DNA of 64,000 bases from Gammaproteobacteria bacterium (GCA_965277715.1 OZ255836.1:2048001-2112000), one strand, 5' to 3'; positions 30,592-41,272 are shown, counted from the stretch's first letter. The notes: generated from the letters alone by a model not told the origin. A program made the numbers and translations.

Positions 30592-30909
30592 AAGAAAGCT
30601 ATGCACTTAAACCCATTTTACCCAGATGAATACTTGTGGAACTTAGGAGGTGTTTACTAAAGCCTGAAACAATACCAAGATGCCATCAATACTATTGATC
30701 AAATGAATAACCCCATCACAGGAAACCGTATTCTTACAGCCAGCTATACCCAATTTGGTGAAATAGAAAAGGCCCGGCAAAGTGCACAAAAAATACTCTC
30801 AGCACATCCAGATTTTTCACTGGATGAATGGACCAAAATGATGCCAGATAAACATATGGAAGACACTATGCATTTTATCGAGGGACTCAGTAAAACTGGA
30901 TTACACTAA
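30592..30909 (+). pseudogene. C-terminal remnant of a cyclase-TolB-TPR paralog
   Basis: KKAMHLNPFYPDEYLWNLGGVY*SLKQY...HPDFSL...PDK...IEGL aligns with the C-terminus of 33235..35001; in-frame TAA at 30658-30660; 5' part missing. Confidence 0.88.
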
Positions 30910-30987: not shown

Positions 30988-31626
30988 ATGAACCAACAAA
31001 CCACCGAAAGCACTCAACATTTCTACTTAAAGCCCTTTACGGCTGACCATTTGGCACAAGTTGCCGAGTGGTACGAAAACATTGATGATTTATCCATGAT
31101 TGAAAGCAAGGTGCCGGTACCGGTGAATGTCCAGTCACTTGAAAAAGCCTGGCATCACAACCTTTCACAAACAGAACCCCAAACCAGTTACATATTCTTT
31201 ATAGTGAGTAAGAGTAGCGAGCCGATAGGATATGTCGGCTTGCAGGACATAAATTATGCGCATGGGAATAGCGTGGTTTTTATCTATGTAAGAAAAGATA
31301 AGCGCTATTGCGGCATTGGGTTACGGTCTGTTGCATTAATGCTTGACCTGGCCTACGACCAACTGCGGTTACATCGGGGTACCACCTACGTTTATACGCA
31401 CAATACCCCTTCAGTAGCACTACTACAGCGTTGTGGATTTATCGATGAAGGGCGTATGCGGGAAGCCTGCTTCGTTGATGGAAAACACAATGATGTTAGG
31501 ATAGTAGGGATATTGGCAAAGGAATGGCATGCATTGAGAGAATCACTAAGCGATTCGCTTAGTCGACAAATGATTGTTTCAATTGGCAATAACGTAGATA
31601 ATAGATGGAATTGGCCTTCGGTATAA
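30988..31626 (+). CDS. GNAT acetyltransferase (RimJ/RimL-like)
   Basis: IGYVGL, RYCGIG, HNTPSVALLQRCGFIDEGRMRE acetyl-CoA-binding pattern. Confidence 0.85.
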   Translation: MNQQTTESTQHFYLKPFTADHLAQVAEWYENIDDLSMIESKVPVPVNVQSLEKAWHHNLSQTEPQTSYIFFIVSKSSEPIGYVGLQDINYAHGNSVVFIYVRKDKRYCGIGLRSVALMLDLAYDQLRLHRGTTYVYTHNTPSVALLQRCGFIDEGRMREACFVDGKHNDVRIVGILAKEWHALRESLSDSLSRQMIVSIGNNVDNRWNWPSV

Positions 31627-32315: not shown

Positions 32316-33060
32316 TTGAAAATTTTTAGAAAAGCTATGAAATTATCCGATTCATCCGTTCACCCAAAGAGTGAAGAAAAAAACTCACCGAAAACGGGCT
32401 TATCAGAAGCGATAGAAGGTCAGCTTGAAGTAGATACCTACGCAGGTAAAGTGTTTGTAGAGTGGGCCCCGGATTCGGCGGTAACGCCATTAGGTCAACT
32501 GCCCTTTTTCATCCACTTTCTCAAGTGGGAAGAGCGTTTTGATCCGTGGGTGGAGGTTTGTCCGCTGAGTGATAGGAGCAACAATGCACCGGCTAAACGA
32601 GATGTATTAGGCAGCCTGTTTTTATCGATACTGTCTGGGCATAGACGGTATGCGCATTTAGCGACGTTGCAAGCAGATCGGGTGAACACGAAGTTATTGG
32701 GTATGGATAAAGTGGTGAGTGATGATTCGGCGATCCGTACCTTACAAAAGATGCCGGAAGAAGCGTCTATCCACTGGTTGCAGGAACACCTGCTAAGCAG
32801 TTGTGATCCCCTGCTACGCTAGCCGTGGATACTGGGTGTGGATGTCACGGTAAAGCCGCTGTATGGCAGTCAGGAAGGAGCGAAAGTCGGTTACAACCCC
32901 CACAAACCCGGGAGGCCTTCACACACGTATCATAACCTACCTTATAGCGAGTTTACGGTTGGTGTTGGAAGTGGAAGTACAAGCAGGCAATCAAAGTGTA
33001 GCGTGTTATTGCGCACCGGGTTTACTGGAGCTGTTGGATCGTTTGCCCGAGGGCTGCGTA
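32316..33060 (+). mobile_element. IS1380-like DDE transposase pseudogene (truncated)
   Basis: VTPLGQLPFF, SILSGHRRYAH, DVTVKPLYG.QEGA.VGYNPHKPGRPSH; in-frame TAG at 32820-32822, frameshift near 32933, 3' half missing. Confidence 0.8.
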
Positions 33061-33234
33061 ATAAATATTTATCGTATTGCTGAAAAAAAAATACCGTAGC
33101 AACATTCACAAACTCAAGGGCAAGATCTCTCAAAAAACACTTTGTTTTTTCTATTGCTTGTATACAATCTGGATATTAGAATATACCTATTTTAACTTAG
33201 CAAACCCACTAGCACCCATCTGGAAGATTCTTTA

Positions 33235-35001
33235 GTGGCACATAACAACAAAAATAAACGAGAACTGAAAGCAATCCTATTTGCCGATGTAGTAGGCTAC
33301 ACGCGCCTAATGCAAGACAATGAAGAAGCAACTCATGTAGCAACCACCGAACTAGTCGATATTTTCACAAAGGGTTGCGATAAACTGGGTGGCGAAATGC
33401 TTGAAATAAGAGGCGATGGTATCTTTGCATTATTCACCAGTGCTATAAACTCAGTTCGGTTTGCAGATAAAACACAAGACCTTATCGAAAAACATAATCA
33501 AAAATACGAAGAGCATCGAAAAATACGTTTCCGTATAGGCATTCACTTAGGTGATGTTGTAAAAAATAATAAACACTATTATGGAGACAGTATCAATATC
33601 GCCTCACGCATTGAGGGTTTAGCCGATCCAGGTGGCGTGTGTATTTCCAGCGCAATATACGAACAAGTTAAAAGTAACGGTAGTTTTGGTTACGAATACC
33701 TCGGACCGAAAAAATTAAAAAATGTTACTGAGCCTATTAATACCTACCGAATTGTTAAGGATACAAATACAGCCACTCTTGTAGCAAGCCCACGAGACCC
33801 AGAAGAGAGAAAACAACTTATACCAGAGGAAATTCGACCTTCCGTTGCTGTTTTACCATTTAAAAACACTGATGGAAATCCAGCATTTGATTACTTTCCT
33901 GACGGTATAACTGAAGATATTATTACCAACCTATCCAGGTTTCATAATTTGTTTGTAATCGCACGGAGCTCTTCATTTGTATACAAGAATAGTGTCTTAC
34001 CTGCAAAAGTTATCGGAAGAGAGTTGAACGTTCGCTATCTAGTAGATGGTACTGTTCGCCTAGCAAATAACCGCGTCAGAGTTTCTGTCCAGCTAGTAGA
34101 CACAGACAAAGGTTCAACTATTTGGGCAGATAAATACGATCGCAGTCTTGATTATATTTTTGAGGTGCAAGATGAAATATCGGCAATTATTTGTAATATT
34201 ACTGCCGTCAAAATTGAAAAAGAAGAACGTGCCCGCTCATCACATGTCTTACCTGCAAACTTACACGCTTATGAGTATGTTCTCCAGGGTCAGCAACAAA
34301 TATATTTATATACAAGAAAAAGCGTTAGCTCGGCTCGCAAACTTTATGAATCAGCTATAAAGTATGATCCTCGCTATGCAAGAGCATTTGCATCAATGTC
34401 ACGCACTTTAAACCTAGAATGGCGATATTCATGGTCAAATAACCCAGAAGAGTCACTATCACGTGCACTTGACCTTGCTAAACAAGCTGTTTCAATGGAT
34501 GATAGCGACGCGAGAGGGCATTCTGAACTTGGTTTTGTGTACCTCTATAAAAAAGAACATGACCTATCTATTAATGCCTATGAAAAAGCTCGCATCATCA
34601 ATCCAAATGATGCTGATATTATGGCGGATATGGCTGACGCTCTTGTCCATTCAGGCAAACCTGAAGAAGCTCTAAAAATAATAAAAAAAGCTATGCACTT
34701 AAACCCATTTTATCCTGACCAGTATTTGTGGCACCTAAGCGGAGCACAGTTCAAACTAAAACAATATAGAGATGTTATATCTACAGTAAATAAAGCAAAT
34801 AACCCAACAGAAGGAGAGAGATTACTCGCAGCTAGTTTTGCCCACCTCGGCGACCTAGATAAAGCTAAGTGGTATGCCAACCGAGTTTTAGAAGCTCACC
34901 CGAATTTTTCTTTAAGGCATTGGCAAGAAATACTTCCCGACAAATACGAGGAAGATGCAAAGCACTATATCGAAGGCTTACACATGGCAGGCCTTCGATA
35001 A
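33235..35001 (+). CDS. Class III adenylate/guanylate cyclase with TolB-like and TPR domains
   Basis: AILFADVVGYT, EIRGDG, FRIGIHLGDV, YGDSINIASRIE; PSVAVLPF..DGITEDIITNLSRF TolB-N-like; C-terminal TPRs; AT-rich. Confidence 0.92.
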   Translation: MAHNNKNKRELKAILFADVVGYTRLMQDNEEATHVATTELVDIFTKGCDKLGGEMLEIRGDGIFALFTSAINSVRFADKTQDLIEKHNQKYEEHRKIRFRIGIHLGDVVKNNKHYYGDSINIASRIEGLADPGGVCISSAIYEQVKSNGSFGYEYLGPKKLKNVTEPINTYRIVKDTNTATLVASPRDPEERKQLIPEEIRPSVAVLPFKNTDGNPAFDYFPDGITEDIITNLSRFHNLFVIARSSSFVYKNSVLPAKVIGRELNVRYLVDGTVRLANNRVRVSVQLVDTDKGSTIWADKYDRSLDYIFEVQDEISAIICNITAVKIEKEERARSSHVLPANLHAYEYVLQGQQQIYLYTRKSVSSARKLYESAIKYDPRYARAFASMSRTLNLEWRYSWSNNPEESLSRALDLAKQAVSMDDSDARGHSELGFVYLYKKEHDLSINAYEKARIINPNDADIMADMADALVHSGKPEEALKIIKKAMHLNPFYPDQYLWHLSGAQFKLKQYRDVISTVNKANNPTEGERLLAASFAHLGDLDKAKWYANRVLEAHPNFSLRHWQEILPDKYEEDAKHYIEGLHMAGLR

Positions 35002-35080
35002 GATTATAAGCTAGTGCACTGAAAGTCAGTGACTTTGATAAAGCTATTTTCCCGCCAAATAGAATACATGCTGTAGACAG

Positions 35081-35530
35081 CTAACTACCTTTTACATGCA
35101 TGCCTTTTACATTCATGCCGCTAGTTTTCAGTTGCTGGTTAGCTGATAGGACAGGTGCCAAAAGTATTTCCTCAAACGCTCCTGTCTCTAAATCTAACCG
35201 AATAGAAAAATCCGCTTTATCATATGTCCAGACACGAATTCCAGCCTGCTCAATCTCTAACTCAGGGTCTGGTTCAATAACAGTCCCTGCCTCAGCCGGT
35301 GTTTGCCCATCCCCGTGCACCATAAAAATGGCAGGACGAGGCATATCATAGTAATGCCCTTCATACTCAAAGCCATAGACACGCGCCAATTGAGCATTTT
35401 CAGCGGACAATTGGCTTTGCAAAGCAGTTGTCGCCCCAGCACCTTGAGAACTCGCCCCTTCAAGCTTTAGATCGGTTACCACTCGCCCGTATAGACGAAT
35501 CACAGATTGATTCAGTAATGTTTCACTCAT
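35081..35530 (-). CDS. Hypothetical protein with C-terminal GMxVK repeats; candidate YcaO/TfuA substrate
   Basis: Last gene of the ycaO operon with AAGGAAA RBS; ends SGMNVKGMHVKGS. Confidence 0.75.
   Translation of the reverse strand: MSETLLNQSVIRLYGRVVTDLKLEGASSQGAGATTALQSQLSAENAQLARVYGFEYEGHYYDMPRPAIFMVHGDGQTPAEAGTVIEPDPELEIEQAGIRVWTYDKADFSIRLDLETGAFEEILLAPVLSANQQLKTSGMNVKGMHVKGS
35090..35119 (-). repeat. 15-bp tandem repeat encoding GMNVK/GMHVK
   Basis: Minus-strand GGCATGAATGTAAAA-GGCATGCATGTAAAA, one mismatch. Confidence 0.85.
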
Positions 35531-35561
35531 TAGTGTTTCCTTCTTTCGGTTTGTTGTTAAA

Positions 35562-36932
35562 TTAGTGTCGCAAGTTTAACCGCGCCCGCTGAACTCTTTC
35601 GTAATACGTTAGTCGGCTGTTATTTTCAGCCAACTCAGTCGGTTGCAGCTGTAGTATACGCGTGGAGTGCATGTGGCTTGTGATCTCACCAGGCGCTTCA
35701 AACTGTGGCCCAGCTTCTATTAAGCCGACACCTCTACGCGTTGTATTATGTATTATAATTTCTTTATATGCCCCTTCTGTGTATTCACAATCCACATTAA
35801 TAAGGGCTTCAACTACATCAGCATACCTAAGACACTGAGGTGATAATCTCAAACAGACTCTGGCGAGATAAGTGCCTACAGTATCACGTGCATCCATTAA
35901 TGACTGCTTAAAACCCAGCGGATCAGCCGCAAAGGCACGATCAAAGCCTACCTGGACAAGGTATTGTTTTTCTGGCACATATTCATGTTCATGTGCGAAT
36001 TCTTTTAATGGCTGGCTAATCAACTGCCTCGATAACAATATTTCCTGAAAAATATCGACAAAGATATCAAATATAGCCCCTGTCAGTGGCTGCCCTAACG
36101 CATGTTCATCACTCCAACCATCAACAAAATTCCGCATAGTCAATGTGTTAGCCGCCAGCCTAATTTGCTCATTTCTGGAGAGTTCGGCTATCCGGTTTAG
36201 CCTGTTTAGCGAATACAAATTGCCCGAGGTATTTTCCAGCAATTCATCCAATATCGAGTCAAAGTGCATCACCGCAATAATGGCCGTTAAATCCGCCGCC
36301 GATTCATGGAACCCATAGTATTCGCCTGTTTGATTTTCCGGCTCAGGTACACCCACCTGGCTATAAATAATGCCATGGCCTATCTCGTGTGCAATAACGT
36401 CAAAATTCAGGCAAAAATGACTAAAAAAGCCATCCTCCGTCGTATGGGAACCCGCCTCCATAAACCCGTAACCAATCTGCGCATTTGGAAAGTGCGGCAG
36501 TATCGCCAACTCAAGGCGGTCATAATGGTGATCAAAATGCCAGGGTATAGAGCAGCCGAAATACTGCTCCCAAACATCTAAGGTGAACCGCGCACAACCG
36601 AATAAGTGCGCCAGTTTAAATTCGTGGGAGTCAACTGGGATGTGATCAAAGTGGCCGTGCTTGTCTGGCATTGCAGGTGGATAAATATCCCCCGTCCACG
36701 GGGGCAACAGTAGATAAGAACCGTAGCTGCCACTGTGGCAACCATATTCCTTCACTTTATCAATAGGGTATAACGCATACATTCGATCATCAGCCGGGCC
36801 TGGACCAACCGTTCCAGCCGGGCAGGAAATGTATACCTGTTCCGGTTCATTATCTGCATCGACAAATGGAGCCTGTGGAAACAACCGAAACCGTGTCCCA
36901 CCTGAATCATTATATTGAACTACCTTGTCCAT
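35562..36932 (-). CDS. Gluzincin (M4/M36-like) zinc metallopeptidase
   Basis: NFDVIAHEIGH (HExxH), GFHESAAD third ligand, DEHALG; no signal peptide. Confidence 0.8.
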   Translation of the reverse strand: MDKVVQYNDSGGTRFRLFPQAPFVDADNEPEQVYISCPAGTVGPGPADDRMYALYPIDKVKEYGCHSGSYGSYLLLPPWTGDIYPPAMPDKHGHFDHIPVDSHEFKLAHLFGCARFTLDVWEQYFGCSIPWHFDHHYDRLELAILPHFPNAQIGYGFMEAGSHTTEDGFFSHFCLNFDVIAHEIGHGIIYSQVGVPEPENQTGEYYGFHESAADLTAIIAVMHFDSILDELLENTSGNLYSLNRLNRIAELSRNEQIRLAANTLTMRNFVDGWSDEHALGQPLTGAIFDIFVDIFQEILLSRQLISQPLKEFAHEHEYVPEKQYLVQVGFDRAFAADPLGFKQSLMDARDTVGTYLARVCLRLSPQCLRYADVVEALINVDCEYTEGAYKEIIIHNTTRRGVGLIEAGPQFEAPGEITSHMHSTRILQLQPTELAENNSRLTYYERVQRARLNLRH

Positions 36933-36980
36933 ATTATTTTTTGATCTGCCTTATATTATTTATAGCTTCCGCACACCTTT

Positions 36981-38354
36981 TTACTGGCTTTCCCGTTTCA
37001 TTGCAAGCTCAAAAAAGTGCTGTTTTTTTACCAATTGGTAAAAATCCTCGCGCCGATGGAGGCCTATTTGCAGTAAATAATCATCAAGGTTAGCTGGAAT
37101 GCCCTTACCCAATTTTGACTCAAAATACCAGGCAAGTAATTGCGCAGGCACGATATCAGACGCTAGTTCACCAGAAATACAAGCGGCCCGCTTCGCTTCA
37201 GCACACGCTTTGAGCGCATTATACTCACCACTAAGGCGCAGTTCGTTTAACAACAAATGAACACTCTCATCATCCAGGTCATTCTCAACCGCTTTGCACA
37301 ACTGCTCATCCTGCAAAGCCTGTTGCAGGTTTTCTAGCGTCCAGTTATTTTGTTCAATCCACTGGTCAAGCTGAACACGCGTATACAACCCCAAGTTTTC
37401 CCGCCATGCTTGCAGCTGTTGGCACATTTGCCTGTCACCAATTGCTATGCGTTTGCGCCCCGCCTCGTGCAACGCCAGTTTTTTAAGACGAGCACGCAAC
37501 ATAACCTGACGATAATGTAATGGCGCCAACCTGAGTTCATCGATAATGAGCTGCTCTATACCAGCAACAAGTTGCTTACTCTCTACATGCGATTTTTCCG
37601 CTTTACCTGCCAGTGCATGCCCTGTTACAACGCTATCCCACGCCACTGTCCATTCAAATGCATAGTCGCAACGCATCGGAGCGGCTTCAGAGGAAGAAAA
37701 CGCTGCCAATGCCGCCAACAAAGCTTCAGCATCCTGACATTTTAAGTCCTGCTCCCCTCCCGGCAACCAACGTTCAAATGCCGACAACATATGCGCTTCA
37801 GCACCTGCCTGCTTCGCTGCGGCTACCACACACAACCATTGGCGTTTTTGATAAAAAATAGACTTTGCTGCCGCAATTAACAAATCCGCATCCTGCTTAC
37901 TCACCACTGATTCAGTCAGCGCACGACTTACGGTCGCACGGACATTGACCATAGGAAGAGATAATGACAAGTAGCCCAACTCTGCAGGGCCGTGTAATAC
38001 AGCTACTTCATCATCGTCTTCAAGCACACCATCGCGATAACAGGCAAAAATTTCACCCACACCCCGCATACCGAATGAATGCAATTCAGCAGCGCGCAAC
38101 GCCCCCATACTACTGGCACCAAACACATGAATACCACGCGACATAGCCCAAAGAATTTCTTTGTGCCATACGGAGGGAACACCCTCAAAATAACCATCGA
38201 TGATGGCTATCACATCAGGTGCTGTCTGTGCTGCACGGTACACATCCCCCTGCGAAACTGGGGCTTGCCATTCAACACCTTGCACCGCTTCAACCGCATC
38301 ACGGGAAATACTCGGCCCGGAAAATACAATAGTTTTCACTTGTACTTCATTCAC
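36981..38354 (-). CDS. tfuA: TfuA-like protein with long C-terminal extension
   Basis: IVFSGPS, QGDV, IDGYFEGVPSVWHKEIL, GASSMGALRAAEL, DDDEVAVLHGP, NVRAT. Confidence 0.93.
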   Translation of the reverse strand: MNEVQVKTIVFSGPSISRDAVEAVQGVEWQAPVSQGDVYRAAQTAPDVIAIIDGYFEGVPSVWHKEILWAMSRGIHVFGASSMGALRAAELHSFGMRGVGEIFACYRDGVLEDDDEVAVLHGPAELGYLSLSLPMVNVRATVSRALTESVVSKQDADLLIAAAKSIFYQKRQWLCVVAAAKQAGAEAHMLSAFERWLPGGEQDLKCQDAEALLAALAAFSSSEAAPMRCDYAFEWTVAWDSVVTGHALAGKAEKSHVESKQLVAGIEQLIIDELRLAPLHYRQVMLRARLKKLALHEAGRKRIAIGDRQMCQQLQAWRENLGLYTRVQLDQWIEQNNWTLENLQQALQDEQLCKAVENDLDDESVHLLLNELRLSGEYNALKACAEAKRAACISGELASDIVPAQLLAWYFESKLGKGIPANLDDYLLQIGLHRREDFYQLVKKQHFFELAMKRESQ

Positions 38355-38401
38355 ATTAGCCCGCTATCCCATCCTAAAGAAAGTGTGCAAAGTGCTATGC
38401 A

Positions 38402-39259
38402 TCATAGTTTTTTCTTCTTATCCCGCCAGAACTCCATTTTCTTATATTTATAGTACAGGCTGTTCCCCAAAACCTCACGGGCATCCCAGGTTCTATCTCT
38501 CAGTGCAGGCCCCAGTTTATGCAAATCTGGAATACCATAGGCGCCTGCATCGTTCTCGATAATTTCTTTCTTTATTTTATCAAAATAGTGTGTTTCATTA
38601 TCACCCCATATAGATAGATCTTTACGACCGATAAAACCATATATCTGATCGATAACTTCTCCTGGCTTGGCAATTAAATCTTTTCTCTCTACCAGTAGAA
38701 GGTTTTTTTTACTTTTACTTAAATATGTTTTTTTAAGATTTGCATAACACCAACCAACGCTAGTGGGAATAGTCGGGTTCATCATTAACAGGCAGCGATT
38801 TTCATCGCTCAGTTTTTTATGCTCATTCAGCAGTTGTGCATCAATAAATGAATTGTGGTCGGGATTTTTTCGTATCAGCATAAGAAAGGACGCCAGGCAA
38901 TCTGTAATATTATCGACAGTACAGATTACTTTCATCTCCTCTTGTAAAATTTCCCTGGCAGCGTCAATAGGGTCTTTCATATGCCAGGCCCACGATTTAT
39001 CAAAAATATGCGTTTCCTCCCTGTGTTGATACATACCATCCCGCACACTGCGCCATAGATTTGGCAGTTGATCCGGGTGTTTATAAGCTTTCAGTGTTAC
39101 TGCGTTTTTCCGCCACTTGATCAAAATCTCGCTGATGATTTCACTCAATGGAGAAGCCGGAGAAACATGCATATTTTTATTTTGATTCAGGATTTCACCT
39201 AAAACTGTACTGCCGGTTCTTGGCAGCCCTGCCAGGTAATAATATTTCTTTTGCTTCAC
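38402..39259 (-). CDS. PAPS-dependent sulfotransferase family protein
   Basis: N-terminal LAGLPRTGSTVLGEILNQN 5'-PSB loop, DKS motif; more AT-rich than its neighbours. Confidence 0.8.
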   Translation of the reverse strand: MKQKKYYYLAGLPRTGSTVLGEILNQNKNMHVSPASPLSEIISEILIKWRKNAVTLKAYKHPDQLPNLWRSVRDGMYQHREETHIFDKSWAWHMKDPIDAAREILQEEMKVICTVDNITDCLASFLMLIRKNPDHNSFIDAQLLNEHKKLSDENRCLLMMNPTIPTSVGWCYANLKKTYLSKSKKNLLLVERKDLIAKPGEVIDQIYGFIGRKDLSIWGDNETHYFDKIKKEIIENDAGAYGIPDLHKLGPALRDRTWDAREVLGNSLYYKYKKMEFWRDKKKKL

Positions 39260-39337
39260 ATTTAACTCGCTTGAATTTACAACGTTACCCTGCTTATTCT
39301 TGCAATCGTACTTTCACTTTGTGCAATCTGCAACGCC

Positions 39338-40591
39338 TCATAAAGTAGCCTGCACCTCGCGAGCACGCGCTCCAGGGATATAATCATCATCATGCGGACC
39401 TTCAAGCCCAGGGATGACAATTCTTACCACTGGAATATTGAACGTTGGTTTAGTGAGATTAATACAAATCACTTCGTCTATTTCAATACGACGCAACTGG
39501 GTTAGCATCCAGTCAACATCTTCCTGAAAGGTGGAAAACTGTCGACTGTCGATGGTGGCAAAATCAACACACCCATTACCCTGCCCGGCAATATTGCGAA
39601 ACACCCGGTTTTTTTCCTGCAGCCTTGCCTGTGTAAATTCAGCATGGGTTAAATCGTCACGCGATCCGGCAATATAGGTTGTGCGCACTTGCACGGCTTC
39701 AGTAAGCGCCCGCACCAGCGCAATCGATTTACTCGGGTGACACCCGGCGCCCAACCCAGGGTGTGCTATAGGGTTGCGTTCATCAAGCAATACACACTCA
39801 AAACAGGCAACACCTGTATCACTACTAATATCCCAAACCGTTATCGATAGATCGGCTGTATGCAACTGCTCAATCAAGCGACGACAAAGCATATCATCCA
39901 CTGAACCAAGATCAAGTTTATCTGCATCGCGCCCCAGTTTACTTTTTTGGTGCCATAGGCTGCTCGCATCGCGTTCAATCACTTCACATATCGCATGCGA
40001 TACCGCCTCCAGGTAGTGGTTACCCGATGCCAGGCCATTACTACTCTGTGCAAAGCACCCACTGCCAGAAGGCGATGGGTGGTTATAGCAGGTATGCACA
40101 ATTTCATAGGGCAACCAAGTGTTTTTTGTATCGAGAAGGTTGCTGCCTTCAATCCATAAAATAGGCCATGTTGGTTGATACCGACTGCCGCACATTGCCG
40201 GCAAGCGGTCAATGTTGACTAAATGCTGGTTATCCGACAGATCATCAAAGCTACCCAGCTTTAGTGGAAGTTCAATGTGCTCAGCATGCCACGACTCAAC
40301 TGATTCCATCAGCCCTGAAGCTTTGGCGGCGTCTAATGTCAACCCTTTCCCTTGGGAAACGGCAATAGAGCGGGAATTAGGGCGGCATACCATCACCACC
40401 GGTATACCAATACGATCCAATCCGGTAACGTTGGCGATGCGTGTGATACCCATTACAGGCATAAACGGCATTACATTGGCCAGTGTTTCTGCCGGTTCAA
40501 TCAGAAGGTGTGCACCGGTTTGGTAGCATTTTTCCGCACGCTCTAATGCTATTGGAGGGTATTGTTGTGGAGATTCAGTATGCTTTGGCAT
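39338..40591 (-). CDS. ycaO: YcaO-family protein (TfuA-associated, thioamide-forming type)
   Basis: GITRIANVTGLDRIGIP, SQGKG, MESVE, SSNGLASGN, EVIERDA, RALTEAVQ.R...IAGSRDDL, PVVRIVIPGLE. Confidence 0.95.
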   Translation of the reverse strand: MPKHTESPQQYPPIALERAEKCYQTGAHLLIEPAETLANVMPFMPVMGITRIANVTGLDRIGIPVVMVCRPNSRSIAVSQGKGLTLDAAKASGLMESVESWHAEHIELPLKLGSFDDLSDNQHLVNIDRLPAMCGSRYQPTWPILWIEGSNLLDTKNTWLPYEIVHTCYNHPSPSGSGCFAQSSNGLASGNHYLEAVSHAICEVIERDASSLWHQKSKLGRDADKLDLGSVDDMLCRRLIEQLHTADLSITVWDISSDTGVACFECVLLDERNPIAHPGLGAGCHPSKSIALVRALTEAVQVRTTYIAGSRDDLTHAEFTQARLQEKNRVFRNIAGQGNGCVDFATIDSRQFSTFQEDVDWMLTQLRRIEIDEVICINLTKPTFNIPVVRIVIPGLEGPHDDDYIPGARAREVQATL

Positions 40592-40724
40592 CGCGTTGTA
40601 CTGTGTTTAACTCTGTCATCCGCACAGCAGGCCCGTGGCATGAAAGACTGTCAATAAACCATCCACATTCGATGTCAACCAGGCTACACTTGAAAGTACA
40701 AGACAGATCTATCAAGCAGACAAA

Positions 40725-40943
40725 GTGCATAAACTCACCTTTGAGCTATCGATCAGTAGCGATCAATGGCTACATTATTACGCAGGCCACGCCAATGCAG
40801 TGCGTGTTGTGGCCGACAACGGCAAATCACTACAACTACCCGCCAGCGCACTGCGCCCGTTTATTTTGCACAATGGTATACACGGTCGATTTGTCGTGCG
40901 TTTTGACCAATACAATAAGCTATTGGGTATTAATCGTTTATAG
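40725..40943 (+). CDS. DUF2835-like small protein
   Basis: YYAGHANAVRV...GKSLQLPASALRPF...GIHGRF pattern. Confidence 0.75.
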   Translation: MHKLTFELSISSDQWLHYYAGHANAVRVVADNGKSLQLPASALRPFILHNGIHGRFVVRFDQYNKLLGINRL

Positions 40944-40984
40944 AGAGTGTACAATAACTGGTTTTACATTTTACGGTATCACAC

Positions 40985-41272
40985 ATGAGCCAACTCCAGC
41001 TTTCCGCAGAACTCGTTCGCCAACTCCACCAATCACTGGCCGACCATGACGATAATGCCGAAGACCCCGGTGTAGCCGCACAATATATGGCAGCCATTAT
41101 TGGCTTCTTACTTGGTGAACAGGATATGCCAGACACACAAAAGGAGGAGATACTTGAACAGTTGTTTGCCTTTGCAAAGCATGTTGCAAATGACGTTAGC
41201 CAACAGAAAAAAGCCCCTCCAGCTCCTCCACCACAAAATGCATTTGGTGTATGGAAACCTGGCATGAGCTAA
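40985..41272 (+). CDS. Conserved hypothetical protein
   Basis: Helical 95-aa ORF ending AFGVWKPG; in line with neighbouring genes. Confidence 0.7.
   Translation: MSQLQLSAELVRQLHQSLADHDDNAEDPGVAAQYMAAIIGFLLGEQDMPDTQKEEILEQLFAFAKHVANDVSQQKKAPPAPPPQNAFGVWKPGMS

Follow-up and report, generated by a model that had tools for sequence, protein, structure and literature searches.

What does the TfuA-YcaO pair of this locus act upon? The locus lies within a 64,000-nucleotide stretch of DNA from a gammaproteobacterium (GCA_965277715.1 OZ255836.1:2048001-2112000), the whole of which is called the window below. Proteins of the PF02624 (YcaO) and PF07812 (TfuA) families are encoded here in the same operon, which is the hallmark of a TfuA-YcaO pathway, and a further gene of that operon encodes a 149-residue protein with a repetitive C-terminus, for which we use the working name pre149. 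From a comparison of homologous loci we propose, with about an even chance of being right, that pre149 is a ribosomally made substrate of the multi-core type, similar to the precursors of peptides that ribosomes synthesize and that are modified post-translationally (RiPPs), whose repeats would be thioamidated and subsequently cut out. A preliminary description, made from the DNA alone, had regarded the globular part of the protein as a leader or recognition domain and its repeats as the modified core. The conserved head and the variable repeats reported here agree with that idea; the conservation of the head, however, exceeds what a passive leader would need.

The open reading frame (ORF) of pre149 starts with ATG, with an AGGA Shine-Dalgarno-like motif 8 nt upstream and a gap of 31 nt to the preceding gene. 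The C-terminus was found to be LKTS-GMNVK-GMHVK-GS, as had been described, and Tandem Repeats Finder reports the same repeat (35088-35119, period 15, 2.1 copies, 94% matches, score 57). The two units occupy positions 35119-35105 and 35104-35090 and differ by a single base, AAT versus CAT. The earlier impression of an acidic globular part of about 130 residues followed by a basic tail was borne out: residues 1-132 contain 20 acidic and 8 basic residues, and residues 133-149 contain none and 3, respectively. An AlphaFold2 model built from a 48-row alignment has a mean predicted local distance difference test (pLDDT) score of 70 and a predicted template modeling (pTM) score of 0.66, and consists of a beta-rich core followed by a helix. 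The means for 10-residue blocks in the core are 82-89, whereas pLDDT for residues 133-149 is below 50, and for this reason the head is read as folded and the tail as probably disordered. The fold of the head resembles nothing in the collections that were searched. No Pfam family and no NCBIfam family (NCBIfam at E ≤ 0.01) matched pre149, and in the absence of an NCBIfam match the head is not a leader of the NHLP or Nif11 kind that had been cited earlier for comparison. Foldseek against the PDB returned no match to the head at E ≤ 1e-3, VIA-align, run on 48,161 chains, reached at most Z = 3.1 (GroES) and in no case Z ≥ 5, and the ESM Atlas returned nothing usable.

Two copies of a 15-mer, taken alone, are weak evidence. 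The repeat of pre149 is nevertheless not a product of chance, because tandem units occupy the corresponding position in homologous loci, at least two of them in 75 of 80 loci and at least three in 65 of the 80. These loci are the best 80 of 273 stretches in which a scan of one genome per species detected relatives of pre149, and they are numbered from L001 onward; all locus counts below refer to them. The hosts are mostly Alphaproteobacteria (Mesorhizobium, Ruegeria, Roseovarius, Paracoccus, Rhizobium, and Anderseniella), with a few gammaproteobacterial metagenome-assembled genomes (MAGs). Among 401 genomes that sample the alphaproteobacterial species evenly, 9 had a member of the family. A word-seeded search had returned 20 relatives at 36-69% identity, all of them unnamed or "hypothetical", and a hidden Markov model search of 1.84 billion representatives returned 651 clusters (at 50% identity) with E ≤ 1e-3, 489 with E ≤ 1e-10, and 242 with E ≤ 1e-30. 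A scan of metagenomes for near relatives yielded six loci at about 40% identity and none that was close. In full-text searches, which covered few of the subscription journals, we found no description of the family.

The head is conserved among the homologues, as the preliminary description had asked to see. An alignment of 48 sequences has 12 invariant columns in the head and 10 more that are almost invariant, and the conserved columns include G15, A49, G58, V71-H72-G73, W101, D104, D107, and G117. The homologues are 150-420 residues long, and RefSeq labels them, like the 456-residue protein encoded next to pre149, as "hypothetical protein"; precursor finders that look for short ORFs would consequently miss the substrate, which had been foreseen. 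In a sub-family of 270-420 residues (P0197, P0208, P0223, P0246, P0156, and Mesorhizobium loci such as L024), an insertion of 100-250 residues separates the first strand from the remainder of the head, and this insertion matches no Pfam family.

In the homologues the repeats start after a conserved (I/L)LL motif, and the number of units varies from 1 to about 10, with unit lengths of 4-9 residues. Tandem copies of a core whose number varies between relatives are the hallmark of a multi-core precursor, and the predicted variation in repeat number is thereby confirmed. Examples of the tails are SGAKV repeated five to seven times (Ruegeria, Roseovarius), GMSAR or GMNAR six to seven times (Mesorhizobium), and SGKRV three times in the closest gammaproteobacterial MAGs; others are GGKVG x9, SGAHARI x5, SGSDLRT x3, GANL x6, and YSGGKA x5. 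The units had been called glycine-anchored, and Gly is indeed present in 90 of 95 distinct units, the typical forms being [S/R/G]-G-[A/M]-x-[V/A] and S-G-x-x-x-R-x. Most units, though not all, include a basic residue. The expectation that homologues carry the tail holds for most of them, but 5 of the 80 loci have no clear repeat. Among 148 representatives, 112 bear a repeat, with periods of 5 (70), 7 (29), 8 (6), 4 (3), 9 (2), and 6 (2) residues; the other 36 have no clear repeat by the criterion used, and some of the 148 appear to have a single unit. The last residue of the tail is Asp in 89 of the representatives and Glu in 13.

The unit peptide itself is under selection. Every pair of units inside each protein was compared codon by codon in the 80 loci, and 2380 synonymous and 121 non-synonymous differences were counted; the pairs are not independent and many of the loci are related. 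In 45 loci all differences between units are synonymous, as in L013, where comparison of the seven copies of SGAKV gives 75 synonymous differences and no non-synonymous one, and the pattern recurs in every clade. Slippage is not the cause of the identity of the units, because recent slippage would yield identical DNA. The cell therefore maintains several copies of the same peptide. The units of the window are an exception, with one non-synonymous difference and no synonymous one.

The partners of pre149 were counted by tblastn of the window proteins against the 80 loci. Matches were found to pre149 in 80, to the 456-residue protein, which contains an HExxH motif, in 74, to a nucleotidyl cyclase with tetratricopeptide (TPR) repeats in 73, to TfuA in 68, to YcaO in 66, and to the sulfotransferase of the window in 1. 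Some loci end at a contig boundary and were dropped from the counts (L023, L047, L048, L056, and L061 for YcaO; L023 and L056 for the HExxH protein; L038, L047, and L056 for the cyclase). Of the informative loci that remain, 66 of 75 have YcaO, 74 of 78 the HExxH protein, and 73 of 77 the cyclase. YcaO and TfuA are paired, as in the window, in 66 of the 80 loci. The gene order YcaO-TfuA-HExxH-pre149 is conserved, and the synteny spans Alpha- and Gammaproteobacteria. A pre149 homologue lies at most 4 kb downstream of YcaO/TfuA in the 66 loci, and the nine exceptions form one clade. A census of ORFs in five reference loci identified a GNAT acetyltransferase as the only further widely conserved neighbor. 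The protease-like protein, the TPR-cyclase, and the GNAT had been absent from the preliminary description. The HExxH protein is missing from three Paracoccus loci and from L014. The latter is a 5.4-kb contig of a gammaproteobacterial MAG in which the match to TfuA ends at residue 307, the pre149 homologue begins at residue 39, and the HExxH gene that should separate the two is lacking; this arrangement looks like a deletion that fused the tfuA and pre149 genes.

Table 1. Features of the window at and around the pre149 gene
Feature	Coordinates	Strand	Remarks
pre149	35081..35530	-	ORF of 149 aa, ATG start; coordinates include the stop codon
Acidic N-terminal domain of pre149, residues 1-132	35135..35530	-	conserved in alignments; predicted beta-rich with C-terminal helix; no known fold found
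Tandem 15-nt units of pre149 (GMNVK, GMHVK)	35090..35119	-	proposed modified core; tail predicted to be disordered
HExxH...E protein, 456 aa	35562..36932	-	proposed processing peptidase; thermolysin/fungalysin-like predicted fold
Long TfuA, 457 aa	36981..38354	-	PF07812, 2.5e-48 over residues 53-171; C-terminal extension of about 240 aa
Sulfotransferase	38402..39259	-	PF00685, 1.9e-9; between ycaO and tfuA
YcaO, TfuA-associated type	39338..40591	-	PF02624, 5.2e-75
Class III nucleotidyl cyclase with middle domain and TPR, 588 aa	33235..35001	+	PF00211, 2.6e-13, plus TPR families; convergent with pre149
GNAT acetyltransferase (Acetyltransf_3)	30988..31626	+	PF13302, 1.4e-14

YcaO proteins activate backbone amides at the expense of ATP. 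The YcaO of the window scores above the cut-off of TIGR00702, the model of the YcaO kinase domain. Its best model is TIGR03266 (McrA-glycine thioamidation) at 228 bits, below the equivalog cut-off of 365, and its nearest solved relative is MJ1094 (PDB 6pe3, 9.5e-30). TfuA likewise remains below the equivalog cut-off for McrA-glycine thioamidation (NF033432, 209.6 versus 235.2 bits) and matches PDB 6xp8 at 5e-34 over residues 7-213 only. By the names and scores of these NCBIfam models and by the two structures, the YcaO and the TfuA are closest to thioamide-forming pairs. The C-terminal extension of the TfuA is common to most orthologues and missing in L049, L053, and L063; it has no sequence match in the PDB, and the ESM Atlas gave only other long TfuA clusters (score 0.77). 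In the available text of a study of uL16, TfuA is a hydrolase that hands on sulfide from a ThiS-like carrier (PMC13063428).

The 456-residue protein has more than 1,400 homologues, all of them unnamed. It matches no Pfam and no NCBIfam family, and a sequence profile search of the PDB gave only spurious matches to repeats. Residues H182, E183, H186, and E210 are invariant in 36 sequences. The AlphaFold2 model (pLDDT 85, pTM 0.87) was compared with the PDB by Foldseek, and 28 matches were obtained at E ≤ 1e-3 and 10-13% identity, of which the top 19 are all M36 or M4 proteases; the best of these are 7qfy, 4k90, 3nqx, 1bqb, and 4tnl, with E of 2e-6 to 7e-6. The model thus resembles fungalysin (M36) and vibriolysin, aureolysin, and thermolysin (M4), with which the protein shares the HExxH motif, the downstream Glu, and the overall predicted fold. 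The proteases of those families differ from it in that it has no match to a family model, no signal peptide, and no propeptide; no transmembrane or hydrophobic segment was found in it either. Because the signal peptide and the propeptide are lacking, the protein is predicted to be cytoplasmic. In our interpretation it represents an undescribed family of cytoplasmic zinc peptidases similar to thermolysin. Prediction of a complex between this protein and pre149 gave a score of 0.00 in two runs, in which controls were not folded, so that this score has no bearing on whether the two bind.

The cyclase retains D18, G60, D61, N121, and R125 in at least 90% of 73 orthologues; we take these to include the pair of Asp that bind metal in class III enzymes, together with the Asn and Arg of that class. 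In Rhizobium the cyclase gene is co-directional with and adjacent to the others, in the order cyclase-HExxH-pre149.

In the pathway that we favor, the folded acidic head of about 130 residues would act as a scaffold or recognition domain, and the disordered C-terminal run of short, glycine-containing, nearly identical units would provide the cores. YcaO substrates are usually disordered, as is predicted for this tail. YcaO and ATP would activate backbone amides in the units, and TfuA would provide the sulfide equivalents for conversion to thioamides. The putative cytoplasmic zinc peptidase would then separate the tail from the head, cut between the units, or do both, and the outcome would be several copies of one small (4-9 residue) thioamidated peptide. 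The GNAT might be a lineage-specific addition for N-acetylation or for self-protection, the latter presumably as in the example of MccE, and the sulfotransferase another such addition, in the window only. Through the co-inherited TPR-cyclase, as a regulator or a sensor, the system may be tied to cyclic-nucleotide signaling.

The closest precedent, so far as the available text of its description goes, is thiovarsolin biosynthesis in Streptomyces varsoviensis (precursor VarA, YcaO VarY, and TfuA VarT), where a TfuA-YcaO cluster is also combined with a repeating core of variable number, none to five repeats in that case (PMC6511847). The thiovarsolins are described there as N-acetylated Ala-Pro-Arg tripeptides with one thioamide (PMC6511847), that is, as small thioamidated peptides made in several copies per precursor, and the same idea is proposed here for pre149. 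The presence of a GNAT in some of the loci fits an N-acetylation by analogy with these compounds. The thiovarsolin system differs in being actinobacterial, with a short precursor that has an ordinary leader and imperfect repeats, and the same text describes it without a thermolysin-like peptidase, a TPR-cyclase, or a folded head of 130 residues; the units of the pre149 family, on the other hand, are contiguous and mostly identical, and its hosts are Proteobacteria. No relationship in sequence between the two precursors was seen, although no comparison aimed at it was made. The best-scoring relatives of the window YcaO and TfuA are those of McrA thioglycine formation in methanogens (TIGR03266/NF033432; PDB 6pe3 and 6xp8). 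The target in McrA is a Gly, the residue that nearly all units of the pre149 family contain; the window host, however, is bacterial and has no McrA, and its TfuA carries the extra C-terminal region. NHLP and Nif11 precursors share the concept of a large N-terminal part before a short, modified C-terminal core, but the pre149 loci showed no combination of a Gly-Gly cleavage motif and a C39-peptidase ABC exporter, and the beta-rich fold of the pre149 head is conserved, some of its polar and aromatic residues being invariant. The trifolitoxin-type short precursors of the tiarin preprint, in the portion of it that is available, belong to a different family.

TfuA-YcaO clusters are very common in Proteobacteria, and the pre149 family is a concrete, testable candidate substrate for a large group of them. 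Over a thousand TfuA-YcaO clusters have been counted, with no products named, and the known TfuA-YcaO natural products are all from Actinobacteria, according to the available text of PMC8120280; the words "repeat" and "cyclase" do not occur in that text, and its supplementary cluster tables, which list gene cluster families, may already include these clusters without a name. If the proposal of small, thioamidated, multi-copy peptides is correct, they would form a new proteobacterial class of RiPPs. Three features of the system are unusual: a head without a known fold, a predicted cytoplasmic thermolysin-like peptidase without a family model, and a constant link to a TPR-cyclase. Several carriers of the family are tractable hosts (Paracoccus denitrificans, Rhizobium leguminosarum, Mesorhizobium, and Ruegeria).

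A number of observations weigh against the proposal that pre149 is a multi-core precursor. The gene is the last of its operon and not the first. The tail of the window protein has only two units, which differ by one residue, and the units in the family are contiguous, without the spacers, and apparently without the flanking recognition sequences, of most multi-core precursors. No exporter is conserved in the related loci or present in the island of the window, and the cluster proteins contain no signal-like or membrane-like segment, so that all of them appear to be cytoplasmic. The strong conservation of the head, in which His, Asp, Tyr, and Trp residues are invariant, fits a plain RiPP badly, as does the constant TPR-cyclase. 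The same invariant head residues are kept in the protease-less Paracoccus loci. A further objection comes from the nine exceptional loci. These are full-length loci of Rhizobium and some Mesorhizobium in which cyclase-HExxH-pre149 is kept and there is no YcaO/TfuA within 10 kb, and their pre149 heads keep all of the conserved residues except G53. Of five genomes from this clade, one (G004) has no TfuA match, although this is a draft in which absence is not proven; the other four carry TfuA elsewhere in short forms of 248-400 residues. The preliminary description had expected homologues always near ycaO/tfuA and had set the reverse against its own proposal. The association holds for the great majority of informative loci, but the nine loci show that the link is not obligatory. 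In a FastTree phylogeny of the HExxH protein, with midpoint root and support values unexamined, the nine form a single clade nested among YcaO-bearing clades, and the simplest reading of this topology would be a single loss of YcaO/TfuA. Their tails are still perfect (GRSGS x6) or are degenerate. At residue 53 of pre149 (about 35372-35374), Gly is present in 91% of 65 YcaO-linked homologues and Ala in 9 of 9 from the YcaO-less clade; since this is one clade, the change may represent one event. Another clade, of four loci with 6-mers of the RADxxx type, lacks the cyclase and retains the head, the repeats, the protease, and YcaO/TfuA. From the YcaO-less, protease-less, and cyclase-less loci it follows that each partner can be lost singly while the head is conserved throughout, and because its invariant residues persist whichever partner gene is missing, the head must do more than guide YcaO.

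The conserved head, the lack of an exporter, the constant TPR-cyclase, and the survival of the family without YcaO/TfuA keep alive the alternative that pre149 is a working protein, which we consider doubtful. The tail, thioamidated or not, would remain attached as a repeated binding motif, for example for the TPR of the cyclase, and the protease would trim or destroy it as a switch within an intracellular cyclic-nucleotide signaling module. The cyclase is as constant as any partner, it has kept the Asp, Asn, and Arg of catalysis, and its gene is adjacent to the HExxH gene in the co-directional Rhizobium order. This alternative would also account for repeats that are kept in the clade without YcaO/TfuA, and most tails (102 of 148) end in Asp or Glu, which we presume could suit a TPR carboxylate clamp. 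Yet unit lengths of 4-9 residues and wide sequence differences between clades would be odd for one conserved groove, and the cyclase-less loci have everything else. The same four facts leave room for a bolder idea, which we regard as unlikely: a proteobacterial peptide-signal system, in which the protease would cut the tail into many copies of a short, usually thioamidated oligopeptide that the cyclase TPR binds to generate a cyclic-nucleotide signal, with thioamidation giving protease resistance and lineage specificity. This idea is modeled on what we take to be an analogy, the RRNPP systems of Gram-positive bacteria.

YcaO/TfuA could instead act on a Gly of the head, as in McrA, or on an unlinked protein, while the tail serves the protease only, as a pseudo-substrate, inhibitor, or degradation tag. 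Invariant glycines are available in the head (G15, G58, G73, and G117), both enzymes score best against the McrA-glycine models, and the pairing of protease and pre149 persists where YcaO/TfuA is gone. We nonetheless find this quite unlikely, since both scores are below the equivalog cut-offs and the Paracoccus loci combine YcaO/TfuA and pre149 with no protease. Moreover, the head glycines are equally conserved in the clade without YcaO/TfuA, so their conservation is not explained by thioamidation, and a strict identity of units at the peptide level would be needless in a degradation tag. It is very improbable that the tail is an unmodified structural beta-helix of pentapeptide repeats, or low-complexity sequence, and that the clustering with YcaO/TfuA is functionless inherited synteny. 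Many tails of the family do share with pentapeptide repeat proteins (PF00805) 5-residue units of small, polar, and hydrophobic residues, and units such as SGANL fit what we take to be the A(D/N)LXX consensus. A few pass the Pfam threshold: PF00805 is found on P0009, and homologue tails reach 20.8-22.8 bits against a cut-off of 20.2. The window protein, however, has no match to PF00805. Units of 4, 6, 7, 8, or 9 residues, present in 42 of the 112 repeat-bearing representatives, are unable to build a helix with five residues per side, and a stable one would take more than the one to ten units present. The tail is also modeled as disordered, and a synteny that spans Alpha- and Gammaproteobacteria argues against mere inheritance.

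A Pycsar or other cyclase-based defense was considered and rejected: PADLOC reported no system, the PycC domain matches were weak (best 2.9e-9) and of the kind that any class III cyclase would give, and a gene for an effector binding cyclic nucleotide monophosphates (cNMP) is neither conserved among the loci nor found in the window. On a plasmid of Paracoccus kondratievae the annotation places a regulator of the Crp/Fnr family (L094, 7493-8173) at a distance of 1.3 kb from the homologue of pre149, and this regulator is a possible reader of the cyclase product. The same locus has two extra adjoining hypothetical genes with no Pfam family.

The four genes upstream of pre149 on the same strand, for YcaO, the sulfotransferase, TfuA, and the 456-residue protein, are separated by gaps of 31-78 nt. 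A scan of 34800-41000 detected 1 promoter-like site versus 10.8 expected and 5 terminator-like sites versus 5.9 expected. The sole sulfotransferase match among the 80 loci lies about 7 kb away, and neither of the closest loci, L001 and L007, has the gene. Its GC content is 0.38-0.41 versus 0.44-0.51 for its neighbors. Because of this lower GC content and its absence from L001 and L007, the sulfotransferase is taken to be a recent, lineage-specific insertion into the window operon, and it could be either an extra tailoring enzyme or a passenger. The GNAT occurs in 22 of the 80 loci, always beside the cyclase, and the GNAT of the window is orthologous (37% identity, 2e-52, to that of L009). In the related loci the two genes are adjacent without the fragments seen between them in the window at 32316-33099 (+), where there are partial ORFs of 168, 81, and 78 residues; two of these were scanned and gave no Pfam family, and we assume that they may derive from an insertion element. 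A 68-residue ORF at 30703-30909 (+), just upstream of the GNAT, shares 48% identity (2e-23) with the C-terminal 66 residues of the cyclase-TPR protein and looks like the remnant of a second gene of this type. The island of the window contains no gene for a ThiS-like or cNMP-binding protein. Its outer flanks are housekeeping, with rpoN, hprK, rapZ, ptsP, mgtE, and RNR on one side and an alaX-like gene, dinB, a porin gene, and ppc on the other.

The DNA of the organism that carries the window copy occurs in sponge metagenome runs. The stretch 33200-40600 was found in 9 runs from 4 studies, three of which are labeled sponge metagenome. Contigs of runs X3, X4, and X5 span the whole pre149 gene and show no insertion or deletion in the repeat, so the two-unit tail is stable in these populations. 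Runs X5 and X7, from two sponge-metagenome studies, have contigs with one additional C in a C4 run of tfuA (behind 38061), which would shift the frame near codon 98, and with a 19-nt deletion across the ycaO stop codon (39336-39354); neither change is present in X3 and X4. If real, these changes may mean that thioamidation is decaying in some populations. Further contigs from these runs align with portions of the cyclase gene (33794-34655) at 85-90% identity, with diverged stretches of equal length, which suggests that one genome or community contains paralogues of the cyclase-TPR gene.

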